From: Planctomycetota bacterium
GTDB taxonomy: Bacteria > Planctomycetota > UBA1135 > UBA2386
Reading direction: 5' to 3'
DNA length: 64,000 nt
NCBI GenBank assembly: GCA_965223545.1
Contig: OZ245006.1
Coordinates: forward strand, 6,816,001-6,880,000
The position numbers and the translations under genes are program-made. Position 1 is the first letter of the stretch. The number at the start of each line of letters is the position of its first letter. The notes beneath the pieces were generated by a model, which had not been told where the DNA came from, ran no database searches, and saw nothing but the letters and a program-made list of their open reading frames with translations. Below, one piece after another: positions 28,253 through 56,752 of this stretch.

Positions 28253-28762
28253 TCACTGTGCCCTGCGCAGCTCATCGACCCACAGCTCCGTCCAGTGCGC
28301 GCCATCGTCGTGGGAGATCGACATCGACCGTCGCCACACGCCGTCGGCCAACAGCTCGGAAACCAGCCGGGATTCGCGCGTGCGGTGTGGCGAGATCGAG
28401 CGCCACTCGCTCCGAGTGCCCGTGACGGTACCGGCGTAGCGGGCCGCTGCTCGCCCGACCGAGTTCGTGTACTGCCATGACCACTTTCCGTTGGTGGGGT
28501 CGAAGAGTTGCACGGCCGTCCCGGTGTACGAGCGACCCGCCTTCCCGCGGATCTCCAAGGTGCGCAGCTGGCCAGCGCCGATGAGAACCGGCTCGACGCG
28601 CATGCGCATCGGCGCCTCGTCGCCGCTCGCGGCGTCGCGGCGCACTCCTTCCCACGTGCCCAGCGTCCACGCGAAGGGGTCGGTTGGTGGCGAGCTGGCG
28701 CACGCACACAGAGTGAGACAGGCGACGGCAGTGGCTGCCGAGATCGTGTGGACTTGCGGCAT
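28253..28762 (-). CDS. Putative lipoprotein, beta-barrel (DUF1579-like)
   Basis: Lipobox-like LCAC; W.LG.WEG; SISHDDGAHW. Confidence 0.7.
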   Translation of the reverse strand: MPQVHTISAATAVACLTLCACASSPPTDPFAWTLGTWEGVRRDAASGDEAPMRMRVEPVLIGAGQLRTLEIRGKAGRSYTGTAVQLFDPTNGKWSWQYTNSVGRAAARYAGTVTGTRSEWRSISPHRTRESRLVSELLADGVWRRSMSISHDDGAHWTELWVDELRRAQ

Positions 28763-28790
28763 GTTGGACGGCAAGGATCCGCCAACTCTA

Positions 28791-28992
28791 CTCAGCGTGG
28801 CCGGGGCCGCAACCAAGCTCGGATGCCGCTCTCGCCGGAGCGGGTTGGAAGGTCTGACACATCCGCCGCCGCGCTGAGCGCAGACGCCAGTGTTGCTTTC
28901 GAGCCTCCGGGAGTTGCGGTATCGAAGTCTCGGCGACGACGGGCCTTCCGAAAGGTTGTTGCCGCTCGAACATTCTCGGACCCCGAGGCTGA
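28791..28992 (+). repeat. Double-hairpin repeat, locus 2 (one A+B unit)
   Basis: CTCAGCGTGGC...GCCGCGCTGAG, linker, GAGCCTCCGGG...CCCCGAGGCT. Confidence 0.9.
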
Positions 28993-29034
28993 TTGGACCG
29001 CGCGTGGGACCAAGATGGTCATGGGTGCATCGGG

Positions 29035-31248
29035 TCACTCGCCGATCACCAGGTCGACTGCGTTGGTCAGAGAGAGGCCAGACCTCGCAGCGGCGAGCAG
29101 CAGGGCCTGGCTGTAGAGCGGCTGTCCGAACAGGCTGGTCGAGACTGACACCGGGAGCGGGAACGTTGCGAACCCGGAGGCGTTGACTTGCGCGGGCGAT
29201 GTGTCGAGCAGCTGGCCGGGATCAACCAAGAGCAGACAGACGTCGTTGAACGGATGCGTGGCTGGCGCCCGTGACAGCAGCAGGGTCGCAGTACTGCCGC
29301 GCGTGCCCCCATGTACGTCCAGTGCAAACGACGGGTTGCCGATCGTCGGCCGGCCGAAAGCGTGCAGGGTCGGCGGGGTGGTCGACCGGGCGCAGCCGCG
29401 TCCACGCTGCGCGATCGCGGCGGCCGTGGTCGCCGCGTAGATCCAGGTGTCGGAGAGCAACGAGGGGGTGCCGGTGAAGCTACCGCCAAACAGCATCAAC
29501 CGGCCCCGCCCACGGTCGTAAGCCATGCTGTGTTGGTTTCGCGCGGGCGGGGAGGTCGCCGGGACGTGTGCCGTCCACACGGTGCCGTCCCATTCCCACG
29601 TGTCGTTCAGGTTGGAGCCGTTGGCGTGACCGCCGAACAGCACGACGCGCTCGATCGACGGGTCGTAGACCATGTCGAGACAGCACCGCGGCGACGGGTC
29701 GGGGCCGGTTGCCCGCTGGAGCCAAGTTGTGCCGTCCCATTCCCAGGTGTCGCCCAGCTTCTGCACCCTTCGGTCGTTGCCGCCGAAGATGACGACGCGC
29801 TGCCGCGAGGCATCGTACGCCATCGCGTGGTCGAAACGGGCCGGGGGAGATGACTGCGGCGTGCGCCGAGTCCAGGTCGTACCGTCCCACTCCCAGGTGT
29901 TGTTGGTCGCGTTGAACCCGCCGGTGCGTCCACCGAACAACACGACCCGCGCTCGCGCGGCGTCGTACACCATCGTGTGGTCCGAGAGACGGCCGGGCCA
30001 GGTTGGTGGACTCAGCTGGGACCATTGAGTGCCGTCCCACTCCCAGGTGTCGTCGATCGTGAAAGACGAAGTGTCGACTCCGCCGAACAGAACAATGCGC
30101 TGGCGCGCCTCGTCGTAGGCCATGGCGTGGGCCATTCGAACGGGCGGCTGCCGGCTGGGCTGGAGGCGCCACCAGCGGAGCCCGTCCCACGACCAGGTGT
30201 CGTTCTTGAACGAACCACCGAAGAGCACGATCCGGTCACTTGCCGTCGAGTACGCCATCGCGTGTCCCGAGCGGCCATTCGGGCTCGGAAAGGTCGCCGG
30301 AGTCCACGTGCGACCGTCGTACTCCCAAGTGTCCGACAACCAGCCTGCGGCGCCGCCACCGCAGAGTACGACACGCTGACGCGCAGCGTCGTAGACCATC
30401 GCCTGCGCCGACCGGCCGGACGGTGCGACGGCCGGGGATTGCTGCGTCCAGGTGGAGCCGTCGTACTCCCACGTATCGGCGAGGGCAGTCCCAGCAAAGC
30501 CACTACTGCGGCCGCCGAACAGCACCACGCGTCGCCGCGTGCTGTCGTAGGTCATGCTGAAGTAGCCGCGCGCGGCCGGTGTCGTCGACCCACCGACCTG
30601 CGTCCACGCGACGCCGTCCCACTCCCAGGTGTCGCCCAGCCCGTTGAGCGAAGCGTCGATACCGCCAAACAGAACGATCCGCTGGCGGTTCTCATCGTAG
30701 ACGAGCTGGTGGTAGCCGCGCGCAGGCGGACCCTGTGCCGCCAGCGCCCGCGTCCAGTTGGTGCCGTCCCACTCCCAGGTTTCTTCGACCGTGCTGCCGG
30801 TGTCACGGCCGCCGAACAACACGACGCGTTGTCGGGCGGCGTCGTAGGCCATGGCGTGCTGCCAGTAGATGGACGGAGATTGCGGGGGGTTGCGTTGCTG
30901 CCAAGCCACGCCGTCCCATTCCCACGTCTGCTGTTCTCCGTACAAGACGACCCGCCGGCGCGCCGAGTCGTAAGTCAAGGCGTAGTAGAACGTCTGTGGC
31001 ACGTTTGGCGAGAGTCGCTCGGTCCACGTCCGCCCGTCCCACTCCCAGGTCTCGTGCAGATTGAAGGAGCTGTCGAACAAGACGGTGCGTTGACGAGCGG
31101 AGTCGTACGCCATGGCACTCGTGGTGCGCAGCCGGGGCTTCTCCACCCACGTGGCCTGGGCGTGCAGGAGCGTTCCACCGAGAGCGAGCGCCGTCCCGGC
31201 CATGAGCCCGAAAGGGCTTCGAAAACGGAAGGGGGCTAGACGGGCCAA
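29035..31248 (-). CDS. Secreted kelch-repeat (DTWEWDG) beta-propeller protein with shared C-terminal domain
   Basis: About 12 repeats of HAMAYD..RQRVVLFGG...DTWEWDG; AGGAG RBS 6 nt before TTG 31248. Confidence 0.92.
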   Translation of the reverse strand: MARLAPFRFRSPFGLMAGTALALGGTLLHAQATWVEKPRLRTTSAMAYDSARQRTVLFDSSFNLHETWEWDGRTWTERLSPNVPQTFYYALTYDSARRRVVLYGEQQTWEWDGVAWQQRNPPQSPSIYWQHAMAYDAARQRVVLFGGRDTGSTVEETWEWDGTNWTRALAAQGPPARGYHQLVYDENRQRIVLFGGIDASLNGLGDTWEWDGVAWTQVGGSTTPAARGYFSMTYDSTRRRVVLFGGRSSGFAGTALADTWEYDGSTWTQQSPAVAPSGRSAQAMVYDAARQRVVLCGGGAAGWLSDTWEYDGRTWTPATFPSPNGRSGHAMAYSTASDRIVLFGGSFKNDTWSWDGLRWWRLQPSRQPPVRMAHAMAYDEARQRIVLFGGVDTSSFTIDDTWEWDGTQWSQLSPPTWPGRLSDHTMVYDAARARVVLFGGRTGGFNATNNTWEWDGTTWTRRTPQSSPPARFDHAMAYDASRQRVVIFGGNDRRVQKLGDTWEWDGTTWLQRATGPDPSPRCCLDMVYDPSIERVVLFGGHANGSNLNDTWEWDGTVWTAHVPATSPPARNQHSMAYDRGRGRLMLFGGSFTGTPSLLSDTWIYAATTAAAIAQRGRGCARSTTPPTLHAFGRPTIGNPSFALDVHGGTRGSTATLLLSRAPATHPFNDVCLLLVDPGQLLDTSPAQVNASGFATFPLPVSVSTSLFGQPLYSQALLLAAARSGLSLTNAVDLVIGE

Positions 31249-31322
31249 CGAGGTCTCCTTGGTTGCGTGCCACACCAAGATATCAGGTTCATGCGAACCG
31301 GTGGTGATGGCGGCCGAGTTGT

Positions 31323-31540
31323 CTCAGCGCGGCCACGGCCGCAACCAAACTCGGATGCCGCTCTCGCCAGAGCGGTTTGGAAGGTCCGACCCATCCGCCG
31401 CCGCGCTGAGCCAGGAGGCACTGTCTCTCCGAGCCTCCGGCGCGGCGGCATTGTCGCCATGGCAGCGACGTCGCCTCGAAAATGTTGTCGCAGCTCGACG
31501 ACTCGAGGCGCCGGAGGCTCAGCGCGGCCGAGGCCGCAAC
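31323..31540 (+). repeat. Double-hairpin repeat, locus 3, left part (interrupted by IS110 no. 1)
   Basis: Module A, linker, module B and the start of the next module A ending GGCCGCAAC. Confidence 0.9.
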
Positions 31541-31569
31541 GGTATGTGTGGTTCCATGATCTGCGAAGC

Positions 31570-31845
31570 TAGAGTTCTCCACACCCGTCGCGCCGTAGCG
31601 GTGTGGAAGACTCGCGCGATGGTGCAGCCGCAGGAGTCGTGTCGGGAGTCTGGTCATCGGCCGCAAGAGAGCTTAGGGTCCCCCGGCGTGCGACGGAGAG
31701 GTTTCGCGATCTGCCGCAATGGTGGCGCTTCGAGCGGCCCCTCATTTGGTTCTGCGACTCTCCTCCCGCGTGGGGGACCCGATTTAGGAGATTGGCGGCG
31801 TGAGAAATCACGGCCCCGAAACACGAACCGTTTTGGCGACTCGCC
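31570..31845 (+). ncRNA. Predicted bridge RNA of IS110 no. 1
   Basis: 5' hairpin; target loop with GCCGCAA (31713-31719) and TTTGGTT (31745-31751); donor loop with TTAGGAGAT (31784-31792) and ACCGTT (31827-31832). RNA ends are approximate. Confidence 0.75.
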
Positions 31846-31914
31846 TCCTCAGGCGGACTGCGCGGGTAGGGAGAGTCCTCTCGTCGACACTCACTCGTTG
31901 AACATGGAGGGGAC

Positions 31915-33417
31915 ATGAATCGATTCGTTGGATTGGATCTCGGCTTGAGGAGCAAGCACCGAGCCGTCGTTCTGGATGGTGCGAAGTCTCGGGGCAGACC
32001 GTTTTCAGTCGAGAACAGCCGTGAGGGTATTGACCTTCTGCTGCGCCGTGCACAGGAAGGTGCCGAGGGTCCGGTGAGCTTCGTGATGGAACCAACGGGG
32101 TTGGCGTGGCTGCCCATCGCGGCGCACGTGAACGCCGCAGGGTTCCAGATCTACGTGAGCAAACCACAGAAGCTGAGCGACCTGCGGAAGTTCTATAGCA
32201 AGCACACCAAAACCGACGTAGTAGACGCCGAGGCCGCTGCGCGTCTGCCGCAGATGGATCCAAAGGGCGTCCACCAGCTGCGTGTTCCAACTGCCGACGA
32301 GACGACGATCCGTCGACTCGTGAAGCGGCGTGAGCGGTTGGCGCGCGAGCTCAGCGACCACAAGCGTCGTGTGCACGCGATACTGGTACTGGCGAATCCC
32401 AGCCTCATGAAGGCCTTGGGGGCAGAGAAGTTCAGTGCCGCTAAGATGGGGTTTCTGCGGCGCTACGTCGATCCGGTGAAAGCGGTCGGCCTTGGGAAGA
32501 GTCGCTTGGAGCGCTTCTTGACGAAGCGATCCAAGGGAACGCATGACCCGTGCTTGGTCGACCGCGTGCTCGAGTCCTGCCGACAGGCCGCCGAGTACTA
32601 CGCTGAGCTGCGAGCTGCGGGGCAGATGCCGTTCGACTACGAGGCCATCCAAGAGGATGTGGTGTACGAGCTGGATGAGATCGAGCGCAAGAACACGGAC
32701 GTTCGCAAGCTCGACGCAAAGATCAAGAAGCTCTACCTGGGCGTCGATCCTGACCGAACACTCGAGCAACTGCGCGGCGTCGGTCCCACGATCGCTGCGG
32801 CCATCGAAGCCTTGGTAGGCGACATCGCGCGGTTCTCGAACGGCAAGAAGTTCGTGAGCTACTGCGGACTGTGTCCACGCCGGAAGCAGACGGGCATGAG
32901 CGACCCCTCGATGCCAATCACCAAAACCGGCCAACGAGTACTCAAGAAGTACCTCTACCTAGCAGCTGACGTCGCTCGCCAGTGGGATCCGGATTTCGCG
33001 GCGTACTACGCTCGCCGCTACGCCGCAGGTGATCACCACAACCTCATCCTCATCGCATTGGCTGGCAAGATGGCGCGCCGCGTCTACGCCCTCCTGAAGC
33101 GTCGCGACAGCCAGCGCGCCGATGACAAGCCGGCGTCGACGCAAGTCCGCTACGTCCTGCGAGACGCCGACGGCAACGAGCTCACGAAGGTTGCCGCGCG
33201 CGCGCTCATCGCAGCCAAGTTCACGCGCAGCATCGTCGCGCCACAGCGGCATGAGCGCGACCAACGGCGACAGGGACGAGTGGGGACTCCGACGACGAGG
33301 GACTTGAGTGGCCGCCCAATGGACGCCACAGGCCTGGCCGTGGAATCCCCACGTCAACCTCACCCGATCGGTGATCTCATGCAAGAACACTTCCCTGGTC
33401 TTGTGGAAGAGTCCTGA
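31915..33417 (+). CDS. IS110 family transposase/recombinase (500 aa)
   Basis: GLDLG, MEPTG, KTDVVDA (DEDD RuvC-like); LRGVGP, SYCGLCP, ALAGKMARRVY; GGAGG RBS. Confidence 0.97.
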   Translation: MNRFVGLDLGLRSKHRAVVLDGAKSRGRPFSVENSREGIDLLLRRAQEGAEGPVSFVMEPTGLAWLPIAAHVNAAGFQIYVSKPQKLSDLRKFYSKHTKTDVVDAEAAARLPQMDPKGVHQLRVPTADETTIRRLVKRRERLARELSDHKRRVHAILVLANPSLMKALGAEKFSAAKMGFLRRYVDPVKAVGLGKSRLERFLTKRSKGTHDPCLVDRVLESCRQAAEYYAELRAAGQMPFDYEAIQEDVVYELDEIERKNTDVRKLDAKIKKLYLGVDPDRTLEQLRGVGPTIAAAIEALVGDIARFSNGKKFVSYCGLCPRRKQTGMSDPSMPITKTGQRVLKKYLYLAADVARQWDPDFAAYYARRYAAGDHHNLILIALAGKMARRVYALLKRRDSQRADDKPASTQVRYVLRDADGNELTKVAARALIAAKFTRSIVAPQRHERDQRRQGRVGTPTTRDLSGRPMDATGLAVESPRQPHPIGDLMQEHFPGLVEES

Positions 33418-33480
33418 ACAAGCCGTGCACACGCGATGTCGAGCCCCAGCGAAAACCCCTTGACATGACTTAGGAGATAT

Positions 33481-33573
33481 CAAACACGGAGCGTTCCGCG
33501 ACCCGAGCGTGGGTTGCAGGTCCCGCGGTCGCCGGCGGCCGCGCTGAGCCCGGAGGCCAGTGTTGTCTTCGAG
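33481..33573 (+). repeat. Double-hairpin repeat, locus 3, middle part between the two IS elements
   Basis: CAAACACGGAGCGTTCCGCGACCCG...GCGCTGAGCC...TGTTGTCTTCGAG continues the interrupted unit. Confidence 0.92.
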
Positions 33574-33649
33574 ATGGGATGAGAGGGTCGATCCCTCCGA
33601 CGCAGTCGCCACACAATGGCGCTGCAAAATCAAAGGAGCAGATCGACCC

Positions 33650-34726
33650 ATGACCAAAGTTACCGCTCAGACCTCCCCCGTGACCATCGGTCTCGACATT
33701 GGCGATCGGAACATCCACTACTGCGCACTGGACGCGTCGCGGACGGTCGTTGCGCGGGGCAGTTTCCCGACGACGCCGACAGCGCTCTCGAAGGCGCTGA
33801 GCGACTTCCCGGGCGCCAGAGTCGCTCTCGAGGCCGGCTCGCAGTCGGCCTGGATGTCTCGGCGGTTGCGCTCGGAGGGCTACGACGTTCACGTCGTGGA
33901 CCCGCGCCGAGTGCAGCTGATCGCCAAGGATCCTCGCAAGACCGACCGGCGCGATGCCGAGACCCTGGCTCGCCTGGAGGCAGGGATGCCCGAGTTGCTC
34001 GGCACGATCCACCACCGCAGCGAGCAGGCACAGGCCGACCTGTCGGTCATTCGTGCGCGCGACCTGCTGGTGAGGATGCGGACGATGGCAGTGCAGCAGG
34101 TCCGGAGCCTGGCGAAGGGCTTCGGCGTCCGGCTGCCGTCGGCATCGACCGCGGCGTTCCCGAAGCGAGCTCGCGAGTCCATGCCGGTCCTGCTACTCAC
34201 TGCGGCGGAGCCGCTGCTGGACTTGATCGCCGACCTGTCCCGCCGGATCGACGAGCTCGACAAGGCGCTCGTCGAGGCGAGCCGCGAGCGATACCCCGAG
34301 GTCGCCGTCGTGCAGCAAGTCAACGGCGTGGGGCCGGTCACAGCGACCGCGTTCGTGCTGACGATCGAGGATCCGACACGATTCGCCGAAAGCCGCCGCG
34401 TGGGCTCCTGGCTCGGCTTGTGCCCAAAGAGCTTCGCGTCGGGCGACAGCAATCCGGAGCTGTCGATCAGCAAGGCTGGCGACGGCTATCTGAGACGGCT
34501 TCTGGTGCAGTGTGCGCACTACATCCTCGGCCCGTTCGGCAAGGACTGTGACCTCCGGCGCTTCGGGCAACGCCTGATCGCCCGCGGCGGCCGCGGCGCG
34601 AGGAAACGCGCGGCGGTCGCGGTTGCCCGCAAGCTCGCGCTACTGCTGCATCGGCTGTGGCGTCATGGCTTGGTCTACGACCCACTCCACAACAGCGACC
34701 GCGTAGCTGCCCACACCGCGGTATGA
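33650..34726 (+). CDS. IS110/IS1111 family transposase (358 aa)
   Basis: IGLDIG, ALEAG, KTDRRDA, VNGVGP, WLGLCP..ASG, ISKAG, AVARKL; AAAGGAG RBS. Confidence 0.97.
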   Translation: MTKVTAQTSPVTIGLDIGDRNIHYCALDASRTVVARGSFPTTPTALSKALSDFPGARVALEAGSQSAWMSRRLRSEGYDVHVVDPRRVQLIAKDPRKTDRRDAETLARLEAGMPELLGTIHHRSEQAQADLSVIRARDLLVRMRTMAVQQVRSLAKGFGVRLPSASTAAFPKRARESMPVLLLTAAEPLLDLIADLSRRIDELDKALVEASRERYPEVAVVQQVNGVGPVTATAFVLTIEDPTRFAESRRVGSWLGLCPKSFASGDSNPELSISKAGDGYLRRLLVQCAHYILGPFGKDCDLRRFGQRLIARGGRGARKRAAVAVARKLALLLHRLWRHGLVYDPLHNSDRVAAHTAV

Positions 34727-34809
34727 CCCAACCATGATCGCCCCACCCCCAACCAACCGAATACCGTGGAGGAACCTGGCGTGATGCCGCTCCTGCACTG
34801 CTGAAGACT

Positions 34810-34960
34810 CACCGCCCGATCCCGGCGACAGCGACCGGAGGCTTGGCCCTCGAGGCCGTTATCGAGAAAGCTGCGCCGGGTCGGACGGATCTCATCGTGC
34901 ACCGGTCTCGGACGAGGCCATCAGAGTGCGTATGGAAGCCTGCGGAGTCCGAAGCTTGTC
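34810..34960 (+). ncRNA. Predicted seek/bridge RNA of IS1111-type element
   Basis: Stem-enclosed loop with CCGGAGGCT (34835-34843, complement of target AGCCTCCGG) and TCGAG (34862-34866); ATGGAAG (34932-34938) matches the element right end plus core. RNA ends are approximate. Confidence 0.72.
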
Positions 34961-35047
34961 GCGCAGGGCGGCGCCAAGGCGCCCAGATTCTCAAGAAGAA
35001 CAGATCCACAGACAAAGAGCTGTTGACGGGATCGCCCCTCTCATGGA

Positions 35048-35343
35048 AGCCTCCGGGAGTTGCGGTATCGAAGTCCCGGCGACGACAGGCCTTCCGAAAG
35101 GTTGTTGCCGCTCGAACATTCTCGGACCCGGAGGCTCAGCGCGGCCGAGGCCGCAACCAAGAACGGAGTATTCCGCGACCCGAGCATCGGCCGCGGGTCC
35201 GGCGGTCGCCGGCGGCCGCGCTGAGCCCAGAGGCCAGTGTTGTCTTCGAGCCTCCGGGAGCCGCGTTGTCGAAGTTCCAGCGGCATCGAGCCTTCCGAAA
35301 GGTTTTCGCCGCGCGAAGATTTGCGGACCCGGAGGCTCAGCGC
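35048..35343 (+). repeat. Double-hairpin repeat, locus 3, right part (B-A-B)
   Basis: AGCCTCCGGGAG... resumes the unit; near-identical to 56343-56752. Confidence 0.92.
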
Positions 35344-36167
35344 ATCAGCGGGCTGGCCTGCGCGAAGGTCCAGCGGTTGCCTTCGGGATCGGCGGCCTCG
35401 TAGGCGCGGAAGCCGTGCTGGTGGATGTCTTTGATGATCTCTGCGCCGTGCGCTTTGGCGTGTGCGAAGTGTGCGTCGAGGTCGGCGACGTGGATGAACG
35501 GTGTGTGGGTGATTGGCGTGTCCGCGACGGCGGTGGCTTCGCGGCCGCAGAGGATGATCGCGCCATTCCCGATGCGGAACTCGATCCAGCTGTGGCTCGG
35601 GTCGTTGGGCTCGACTTCGGGGACGCTGTTTGCGGGCTCGAAGCCGAAGACATCGCGCAGCCAGCGCCCGGCGGCTGCGGGCTCGGCGTAGTGGACGACG
35701 ACGGCGAGCCGCGCCAGGGGCAACGGCTCAGGGGGGACGTGATCGCGCTTTTGGATCCAGTCGTTCAGCCAGACCGGGCTCATCCGTACCCATGCCGTTC
35801 CGCCCTTGTCCTCGCCGCCGTCCGGGATCGTGGCCTGCACGTTCACCTCCGTGCCGCCCGCGCTCATCTCGAAGCGAACGTCGATCTCGACGTCGTCCAA
35901 AGAGCTCGTCCACGCAACCCGCTTGCCTGGCTCCCAGACGGTGATGCGCGCGAGCTCGAGGCCGTCGCCCGTCTCCTCGTCGTAGACCTCGACGATCCGA
36001 CCGCCGACTCCGGGCTCCATCCGCATGTAGTACGCCCGAGCGGTGTCGAAGAAGTTGATCGGGCCCTGGATCCACCAGCGGTCGAGCTCCTTCGTAAAGA
36101 CCTCGAAGGCGGTGGCGGGATCGACGGCGACCTCGATCGATGAGTTCACTGTGCGGGGAGTGGTCAC
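35337..36167 (-). CDS. SRPBCC/AHSA1 (START) domain fused to a VOC domain
   Basis: AFEVFT.ELDRWW, WEPGKRV, then WLRDVFGF...ADPEGNRWTF; GTGA overlap with arsR. Confidence 0.85.
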   Translation of the reverse strand: MTTPRTVNSSIEVAVDPATAFEVFTKELDRWWIQGPINFFDTARAYYMRMEPGVGGRIVEVYDEETGDGLELARITVWEPGKRVAWTSSLDDVEIDVRFEMSAGGTEVNVQATIPDGGEDKGGTAWVRMSPVWLNDWIQKRDHVPPEPLPLARLAVVVHYAEPAAAGRWLRDVFGFEPANSVPEVEPNDPSHSWIEFRIGNGAIILCGREATAVADTPITHTPFIHVADLDAHFAHAKAHGAEIIKDIHQHGFRAYEAADPEGNRWTFAQASPLMR

Positions 36168-56299: not shown

Positions 56300-56752
56300 C
56301 TCGAGGCGACGCCGCCGCCATGGCAACGGCGCCGCGGCGCCGGAGGCTCAGCGCGGCCGAGGCCGCAACCAAACACGGAGCATTCCGCGACCCGAGCGTC
56401 GGTCGCGGGTCCGGCGGTCGCCGGCGGCCGCGCTGAGCCCAGAGGCCAGTGTTGTCTTCGAGCCTCCGGGAGCCGCGTTGTCCAAGTTCCAGCGGCATCG
56501 AGCCTTCCGAAAGGTTGTCGCCGCGCGAAGATTTGCGGACCCTGAGGCTCAGCGCGGCCGAGGCCGCAACCAGACACGGAGCATTCCGCGACCCGAGCGT
56601 CGGTCGCGGGTCCCGCGGTCGCCGGCGGCCGCGCTGAGCCCAGAGGCCAGTGTTGTCTTCGAGCCTCCGGGAGCTGCGTTGTCGAAGCTCCAGCGGCATC
56701 GAGCCTTCCGAAAGGTTGTCGCCGCGCGAAGATTTGCGGCCCCGGACGCTCA
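56300..56752 (+). repeat. Double-hairpin repeat, locus 4: two tandem 201-bp units plus a partial module B
   Basis: GAGGCTCAGCGCGGCCGAGGCCGCAACC recurs at 56343 and 56544. Confidence 0.93.

Follow-up and report, generated by a model that had tools for sequence, protein, structure and literature searches.

The two elements found in one repeat array of a Planctomycetota genome (contig OZ245006.1; positions refer to the window, the whole 64,000 nt stretch analysed) are most probably both recently active bridge-RNA recombinase insertion sequences, of which element 1, a member of the IS110 group, appears to have entered by normal bridge recombination in which a core mismatch was repaired from the exchanged top strand. 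On the same favoured explanation, element 2 is a typical member of the IS1111 group, its AG core common to target and donor, and the two are separate arrivals that met in a single repeat unit by chance.

Excision of both elements from the array (Table 1) leaves exactly 605 bp, which an earlier note on this DNA had put at about that figure. Its division of the restored array into three 201 bp units was mistaken, as the lengths are 195, 201, 201 and 8 bp, and the uninterrupted array to which it was likened contains two units rather than three. The elements are close neighbours as described, both being inserted in the middle unit, although the gap is 93 rather than approximately 92 bp. The layouts ascribed to them are borne out, with element 1 having a long left end and element 2 sub-terminal inverted repeats and a long right end; 'unrelated' is likewise apt, the two recombinases being alignable over only 70 aa, at 34% identity. 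A check of the flanks, also suggested in the earlier note, found the fixed target across copies that characterizes the IS110 family: all 11 copies of element 1 lie between GCCGCAAC and CAAA, followed by C in seven and G in four, and all four copies of element 2 lie at TTCG-AG-CCTCCGGG, the flank anticipated as TTCG-AG-CCTCCGG.

Table 1. Features of the double insertion and of the host repeat in the window
Feature	Position	Strand	Remarks
Single repeat unit	28791..28992	+	further copy
Host repeat unit 1	31323..31517	+	195 bp subtype (module A, linker, module B); intact element 1 target
Middle repeat unit, start	31518..31540	+	hairpin GCGGC-n4-GCCGC; left target ending AC
Element 1, IS110 group	31541..33480	+	1,940 bp; no duplicated core; 11 identical genomic copies
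Element 1 predicted target-binding loop	31675..31780	+	left guide 31713-31720, right guide 31745-31751
Element 1 predicted donor-binding loop	31781..31845	+	left guide 31784-31792, right guide 31827-31831
Element 1 recombinase	31915..33417	+	500 aa; D8/E59/D101/D104, Thr326, Lys83
Element 1 TTGACA	33460..33465	+	right end; putative circle promoter
Middle repeat unit, between elements	33481..33573	+	93 bp; AG core at its end
Element 2, IS1111 group	33574..35049	+	1,476 bp; AG core at both junctions; 4 copies, one interrupted
Element 2 left sub-terminal inverted repeat	33579..33595	+	7 bp from end, AG included
Element 2 recombinase	33650..34726	+	358 aa; ATG at 33650
Element 2 predicted guide RNA region	34812..34945	+	target guides: top-strand 34835-34843, bottom-strand 34859-34866
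Element 2 predicted donor guides	34889-34896 and 34932-34938	+	
Element 2 right sub-terminal inverted repeat	35028..35044	-	3 bp plus AG from end
Middle repeat unit, remainder of module B	35050..35134	+	
Repeat unit 3	35135..35343	+	201 bp plus terminal CTCA
Uninterrupted two-unit array	56343..56752	+	empty reference site

The host repeat, represented by 361 modules in 150 arrays across the genome, is BIME-like, being abundant, palindromic (fold z -4.1) and arranged in tandem mosaics at gene ends as is characteristic of REP and BIME sequences. The end of the repeat coincides with a stop codon in 56 of 103 cases, compared with 226 of 3,000 controls. Within the CTCA that terminates the third unit in the array, TCA is the TGA stop of a minus-strand ORF ending at 35337. 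With the BIME/REPIN sequences and class 3 TnpA-Y1 structures described in PMC6006769, the repeat shares composite intergenic hairpins, tandem arrays and high copy number, as well as a foot of the CnGA type (CTGA on the minus strand); it differs from them in its units of about 200 bp that end on TGA stop codons. The genome has 14 Y1 matches, the nearest modelled repeat lying at a distance of 4.9 kb, and a search for repeat-flanked TnpA-REP/RAYT genes found no Y1 gene within 4.8 kb of any modelled copy; by eye, a linker-like remnant is visible upstream of one Y1 copy. Among array pairs less than 6 kb apart, the gaps of which are unannotated, no autonomous element with modules A and B at its ends was evident. 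An in-frame coding repeat was also considered and is judged unlikely: the commonest spacings in this genome are 195 and 201, but those of a related repeat in G018 are 181-184. The genome also carries planctomycete-type PSCyt2 genes.

Both elements have their sites in this repeat, and targeting is far above chance. The target 12-mer of element 1 occurs 106 times in the emptied genome, against about one occurrence expected under a fifth-order Markov model, and 105 of these lie inside repeat arrays; that of element 2 occurs 65 times against about five expected, every one within an array. As this target is an abundant intergenic repeat, insertions would seldom harm the host.

When 11 and four insertions were dealt over the target sites in 20,000 draws, a pair fell within 120 bp in 30% and within one array in 40%, so that a special meaning of the 93 bp spacing is rejected (P≈0.30). 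Sharing of repeats also has precedents: a single REP of P. putida KT2440 serves as target for both ISPpu9 and ISPpu10 (PMC1525189; PMC12288879), and ISRm19 and ISRm22 both insert in S. meliloti REPs (PMC1525189). Given the ISPpu9/ISPpu10 case and the chance-level spacing, the shared landing pad that headed the earlier note is ordinary. ISPpu9 and ISPpu10 are likewise two IS110-family elements in one genome with all copies at a fixed repeat position, but in the published descriptions both are IS110 members of 57.8% similarity, use one shared position and have 2 bp direct repeats; here, an IS110-group element lacking a direct repeat and a nearly unalignable IS1111-group element lie 93 bp apart in a 200 bp composite unit.

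None of the public-run contigs examined spans both elements, and double occupancy of the locus therefore rests on the assembly. Even so, that a mis-assembly of repeats placed the elements side by side is barely credible, given that the assembly consists of two contigs, every element copy has its own distal flanks, the restored array stays in register, both junction types are present in public-run contigs and adjacency of this kind is expected at P about 0.3. Element ends also adjoin the repeat in contigs from three other studies. In run X1, contig depth was 59.7 for element 1, about 57.6 for element 2 and 23.4 for unique flanks, below expectation for 11 and four copies; such depths are not usable as copy numbers.

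Both recombinases score above the cut-offs for PF01548 (DEDD RuvC-like), PF02371 (Tnp) and NF033542, and a non-coding end of each element has predicted guides which, at the sequence level, are complementary to its target and donor and covary with the targets. The order of the guides agrees with the respective group in each (rule in PMC11187229). Element 2 resembles ISPa11 and ISEc11 (PMC11187229; PMC1525189) in its sub-terminal inverted repeats (matching at 16 of 17 bp), in the 7 and 3 bp extensions typical of the IS1111 group (PMC11187229), here AGATGGG on the left and GGA on the right, and in a downstream non-coding region in which the top-strand match precedes the bottom-strand match. ISPa11 also targets a REP (PMC1525189), although the target of element 2 is different. 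Across 17 loci of the element 2 family, the summed guide matches were 65 and 73, compared with permutation means of 37 and 28, and were reached by none of 10,000 shuffles. Element 1 has the features of the IS110 group: a long left end (374 bp before the ORF, against 63 bp at the right end) with a predicted RNA, no long sub-terminal inverted repeats and a bottom-strand guide that comes first. In 15 loci of its subclade, 58 of the 60 positions made up by the first four right-target bases match the guide; at the core, pairing with the final base of the left junction holds for the donor-loop base in 22/22 loci and for the target-loop base in 21/22, the miss (L054) being read as a parsing slip. The predicted guides are partly paired in unconstrained folds, with weak fold z-scores (-1.8 and -0.8), and an Rfam scan of 28500-36000 returned nothing at E<=1. 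Once the ends of element 1 are joined, its TTGACA would stand 17 bp from a -10-like TATGTG, a spacing that fits a promoter. Neither the assembly nor the listed joints of four contig sets included a circle junction, contigs being apt to drop rare variants. We infer that bridge RNA is expressed and that circles form.

That element 1 lacks a core duplication passed unremarked in the earlier note, and is more unusual than the shared repeat. IS621-type bridge recombinases have the same dinucleotide at both junctions; in all 11 copies of element 1 the left junction is AC and the right AT, and comparison with 95 intact targets, which establish the empty-site sequence, shows no homology at the junctions. 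A 1 bp core was rejected, as the 11-mer expected from it has a single occurrence, which lies outside the repeat; the target 12-mer with an AT core is likewise found once, outside the repeat. Similar differences recur in a subclade of relatives whose left end begins GGTAT (41-56% identity, tree support 99/96). The dinucleotides differ between junctions in 13 of the 15 subclade loci with both ends, including GG/AT, GC/AT, CC/AT and TG/AT, at position 8 in ten loci and position 9 in 11, whereas 20 of 22 relatives outside it, with a left end starting TGTAT, have matched cores. Two subclade loci, L058 and L059, have AC at both junctions, and in two others position 9 is shared. For these relatives, many of them close kin, boundaries were placed by conserved ends and by matches to the guides rather than by empty sites, and on our reading they represent about five mismatch lineages.

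By the favoured mechanism, each element would circularise, the joined ends forming the donor, and its RNA would pair with a fixed 12-14 bp site in the repeat. For element 1, a target core AC would be recombined with a donor core AT; on the model of IS621, the top strands would be cleaved immediately 3' of core position 9 and exchanged, the bottom-strand cuts would lie further left, and the short heteroduplex would be repaired or replicated from the top strand. Repair in this direction would keep the target AC at the left junction and the donor AT at the right, with no duplication. Both right-hand guides have a G opposite position 9, able to pair with C and to wobble with T. A blunt crossover would leave a sequence indistinguishable from that of a staggered cut followed by repair. 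It is unlikely, if still worth weighing, that there is no core at all, with both strands crossing at one bond, or a single strand transferred and copied in, and no heteroduplex ever formed. Such a route would account for the zero junction homology in 11/11 copies, and single-strand copy-out has been reported for IS621 and CazIS110 (10.64898/2026.08.31.748434; 10.1101/2025.10.25.684509). However, although the right junction is AT in most loci, it is AC in L058, L059 and L071 and AG in L064, position 9 in each being that of the left junction, a pattern to be expected if bottom-strand repair takes place occasionally; the geometry of the ends (TTGAC to left-end start) is also identical in the subclade and in matched-core relatives. 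Less probable again is a fixed accident, whereby one ancestral copy of an ordinary matched-core element, its enzyme tolerating wobble, mutated at the right junction and then spread. The difference in element 1 is a single C/T transition that G-T wobble could absorb, and 11 identical copies count as one lineage, but the mismatch recurs in the subclade in pairs several of which are unable to wobble.

Repair from the exchanged top strand remains the preferred reading of element 1, the recombinase of which has ISCro4 and IS621 as its best solved relatives. Thr326 (codon 32890-32892) aligns with Ser241 of IS621 (our own count), the serine of the RRYESG motif, and is presumably the nucleophile in place of the usual catalytic serine; threonine occupies this position in 45 of 103 homologues. 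Lys83 lies opposite Asn84 of IS621. Neither residue correlates cleanly with core tolerance, and both were rejected as its cause: L050 and L052 combine serine with a mismatch, L058 and L059 threonine with a match, and lysine at the Asn84 position is found in matched-core relatives too. No description of a threonine at the catalytic serine or of a mismatched core was found in the largely open-access literature covered; the sole match to 'core mismatch' concerned bases beside the core. Element 1 otherwise resembles IS621 (PMC11208160; PMC11208158) in its DEDD and Tnp domains, a guide RNA (predicted in element 1) in the long left end, left-then-right guide order, REP-type target and -35 in the right end. 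By contrast, IS621 is described with CT at both junctions, an almost invariant T9, Ser241 and Asn84, where element 1 has AC/AT, Thr326, Lys83 and a 500 aa protein. The lack of a duplication has a precedent in the wider family, since a passage in Tobes and Pareja (PMC1525189) indicates an ISPa11 arrangement without direct repeats; element 2, for its part, has AG on both sides. As with the target stem-loop of ISPpu10 (10.64898/2026.03.19.712850), the left target of element 1 is the 3' arm of a 5 bp hairpin in 9/11 copies; by eye, one of the others, outside the repeat, has a shifted 5 bp stem and one no visible stem, and the hairpin is a frequent feature of the site rather than a demonstrated requirement.

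The earlier proposal that two lineages hold guides to different positions of one repeat stands, and almost every copy of the two elements lies in that repeat. That these were independently acquired fits element 2, as none of its 16 relatives with a parsed loop has its target, but is less certain for element 1. A 54%-identical metagenome relative (L050/L051) uses the target of the latter as well, and the target motif is present in 11 of the 301 genomes from the phylum, so that this guide may have come by descent instead of being acquired in the present host; relatives of element 1 were present in none of five genomes carrying the target motif or a related repeat. Two repeats in the present genome bear a 5 bp footprint resembling off-register excision. 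The odds seem roughly even that the subclade joins target and donor without a shared core, the guides reading target base 9 and donor A at position 8, many members having a threonine nucleophile, and excision being able to slip to a matching AT inside the left end, leaving a target-destroying 5 bp footprint.

The shared landing pad is a further example of a known strategy, and the core mismatch matters more. Boundary pipelines in which the core is taken to be a sequence repeated at the ends (PMC11208160) may have passed over elements such as element 1. In work with IS622 in the human genome, the choice of sites was confined to those with CT or GT cores, and the two partners had to have identical cores (10.1101/2025.05.14.653916); the authors of the IS621 structure paper single out the core preference as a property to be engineered out. 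A natural subclade tolerating different cores, if confirmed, would widen the targetable space and offer a direct test of whether bottom-strand repair completes bridge recombination; joining without a shared core, if true, would lift the identical-core rule used in programming bridge recombinases.

Two IS110-family elements interrupt an array of the host repeat 93 bp apart, both housed within its middle unit: the IS110-group element 1 and the IS1111-group element 2, encoding recombinases of 500 aa and 358 aa that align at 34% identity over a region confined to 70 aa. The earlier note held that removing 31541-33480 and 33574-35049 would restore about 605 bp, as three 201 bp units; the length is indeed 605 bp, but the units measure 195, 201 and 201 bp, with a terminal 8 bp. 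A 747 aa Kelch-repeat beta-propeller protein adjoins this array (29035-31278, reverse strand). Contigs from four of 24 public sequencing runs were compared with the window: X5, X6 and X7, which come from three other studies, show element ends continuing into repeat sequence, and the empty site of element 2, which the note had suggested seeking, is present in X7. None of the four runs' contigs spans the whole stretch, and the circle junctions also suggested were not found among the joints listed in them. When 11 and four insertions were dealt randomly over the target sites of the emptied genome, a pair lay no more than 120 bp apart in 30% of draws, hence no particular explanation is required for their closeness. 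The paired insertion is genuine and, as framed, a further case of a known arrangement, ISPpu9 and ISPpu10 being two IS110 elements found at the same position of one host repeat (PMC1525189 and PMC12288879, accessible portions). By contrast, elements 1 and 2 represent an IS110-group and an IS1111-group member at different positions, a combination not found in the accessible portions of the literature searched, and are a small advance over that pair.

The window covers C1:6816001-6880000 of a host genome of 8.1 Mb, in two contigs and with 70% G+C, whose ten matches to PSCyt2, a family tied to planctomycetes, suggest that it belongs to that phylum. A single repeat unit used as a query has 170 matches in the genome, and separate models of the two modules recover 171 copies of module A and 190 of module B, distributed over 150 arrays, most arranged as AB, ABAB or ABABAB. 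The unit, called BIME-like here, is predicted to fold into two long stem-loops (z -4.1). Arrays end abruptly at a TCA, beyond which the flanks of 62 arrays lack conservation; a long GC3-rich frame terminates with its TGA at this TCA in 56 of the 103 arrays with the terminal CTCA found, out of 125 ending in B, compared with 226 of 3,000 control sites. The full repeat is confined to this genome among the 61 searched, with short partial matches in six of 36 family members, including G018, a genome with a related tandem repeat. Of 301 genomes of the phylum, 11 have a short motif containing the element 1 target; the controls gave no matches. The CTGA foot of the repeat is like the structures adjoining class 3 TnpA-Y1 genes (PMC6006769, accessible part); the 14 Y1 matches in the genome are all more than 4.8 kb from any modelled repeat copy. 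A candidate mobiliser of the repeat is a multi-copy 236 aa Y1 protein (L133, C1:2260082-2260792, and 11 similar copies), scoring under the REP-tyrosine-transposase cut-off, the copies of which have CTGA-footed stem-loops upstream and a right end fixed at the stop codon.

Element 1 is present in 11 copies, each 1,940 bp long and 100% identical, and element 2 in four, three intact and one interrupted. The flanks anticipated earlier recur throughout, with GCCGCAAC on the left and CAAA on the right of 11/11 copies of element 1, and TTCG-AG-CCTCCGGG, with AG at both sides, in 4/4 copies of element 2. At least one repeat arm adjoins ten of the 11 element 1 copies, and neither arm is present at C1:5137697. 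Intact target sites number 95 for element 1 and 61 for element 2, or 106 and 65 after emptying the genome, relative to Markov expectations of about one and five. At two element 1 sites (C1:8049846-8049927 and 5762062-5762178) module B is inverted beside module A, so module B can flip between its inverted ends. The interrupted element 2 copy (L130, C1:7063615-7067772) contains a 2.5 kb IS66 and a 185 bp tandem copy of the element 2 right end, joined directly after the DNA encoding its own left target guide; this resembles self-targeting, and similar right-end expansions are described in the accessible part of 10.64898/2026.08.14.744561. A third IS110-family element (23 copies, C1:517054-518723 and 22 others), with a long left end and a short right end, is inserted at the central AG of a different palindromic repeat, GGAGCC-AG-GCTCC, with 85 intact sites; two copies border the Y1 gene at C1:3914571, arranged like REPs around a RAYT. 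The target of this third element is shared by L046 (G199:C80), which belongs to the IS1111 group and is related to element 2, and the two groups would appear to converge on one palindrome in different genomes.

The predicted guides of both elements follow the orders reported for their respective groups in the accessible text of PMC11187229, and comparison with relatives confirms the predicted positions.

Predicted guide matches of elements 1 and 2 (window positions)
Feature	Position	Remark
Element 1 left-end guide match to left target	31713-31720	
Element 1 left-end guide match to right target	31745-31751	
Element 1 left-end guide match to left donor	31784-31792	
Element 1 left-end guide match to right donor	31827-31831	
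Element 2 right-end match to top-strand target	34835-34843	9/9
Element 2 right-end match to bottom-strand target	34859-34866	after top-strand match

Among 300 other genomes of the class, 43 contain element 2 relatives; both ends were found in 18 of 25 loci fetched and a loop parsed in 17, whose guides match their own targets better than in all 10,000 permutations, kin among these loci not being independent. The target of element 2 itself recurs in none of 16 relatives. Relatives of element 1 are rare in the class (1/300 genomes) and common in metagenomes (103 proteins, and sets of 80 and eight loci). L050 and L051, relatives with 54% identity to element 1, share its target guides and are inserted at the same motif. 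In other genomes, at L050 and L136-L141, the element 1 target motif is preceded by CNCAG, amid short low-complexity repeats, not 200 bp units.

IS621-type elements are expected to have an identical core dinucleotide at both junctions. At the junctions of element 1, AC ends the left and AT the right, AC occurs once in the empty site, and zero bases are shared at the crossover; a shared core is not obtainable however the ends are drawn. This differs from the IS110-family insertions without duplication discussed in the accessible part of PMC11187229, mostly as a question of end placement. The comparison covered 88 loci, element 1 itself plus 87 relatives, and both ends could be found by pattern in 38. 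Where the left end begins TGTAT, junction dinucleotides are identical (CT, GT or AT) in 20/22, the remaining two having doubtful right ends. In the GGTAT subclade of element 1 (22 loci, with L063 and L068 dropped as duplicates and the doubtful right end of L060 uncounted), they differ in 13 of the 15 loci with both ends, at position 9 in 11 and position 8 in ten; the first right-junction base is A in 15/15, and pairing of the donor-loop core base with the last left-junction base holds in 22/22. A tree of 38 proteins (L077 on a long branch; L017, L121, L127, L128 and all but five single-end loci excluded) supports this subclade at 99/96, containing all 13 mismatched rows and two matched ones, and the 18 rows outside it all have matched cores. 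Boundaries in relatives were inferred from conserved ends and guide matches; over the first four right-target bases, the subclade guides agree with the target at 58 of 60 positions. Ten element 1 relatives (L011, L061, L064, L066, L067, L069 and L071-L074) have C-ATG or C-GTG immediately after the insertion point, which in several lies a few bases downstream of a TANNCT hexamer, with the right end contributing AGGAG; these sequences suggest that they possibly target leaderless promoters, the right end supplying a ribosome site.

IS621 cleaves the top strands after position 9 and exchanges them, its bottom-strand cuts fall between 9* and 10*, and mismatch repair has been proposed (PMC11208158 and PMC13626964, accessible parts). 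Similar geometry would place the element 1 core within the heteroduplex, such that repair templated by the top strand would leave exactly AC on the left and AT on the right. Element 1 probably uses IS621-type strand exchange, the core mismatch then being repaired from the top strand; the main rival, for junctions sharing zero bases, is a blunt or single-strand crossover. Thr326 of element 1 aligns with the catalytic serine of IS621 and Lys83 with Asn84; among 103 homologues, the former position is Thr in 45 and Ser in 58, and the latter Lys in 90. Considered as markers of core mismatch, neither Thr nor Lys83 tracks it cleanly. GGTAT also lies between the target halves at C1:537464 and C1:611325, in repeat copies belonging to different subtypes, and the join recurs in a contig of run X1, which is possibly related to the source and is not independent support. 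This footprint corresponds to deletion of element 1 from the AT five bases inside its left end to the right-end AT, and is read as off-register excision at identical cores; it may alternatively reflect microhomology deletion, or one event spread by gene conversion. The literature searched, the coverage of which was limited, contained no description of mismatched cores in natural elements or of threonine acting as nucleophile. The core mismatch of element 1 would represent a new form of bridge recombination, and one that is cheap to test.
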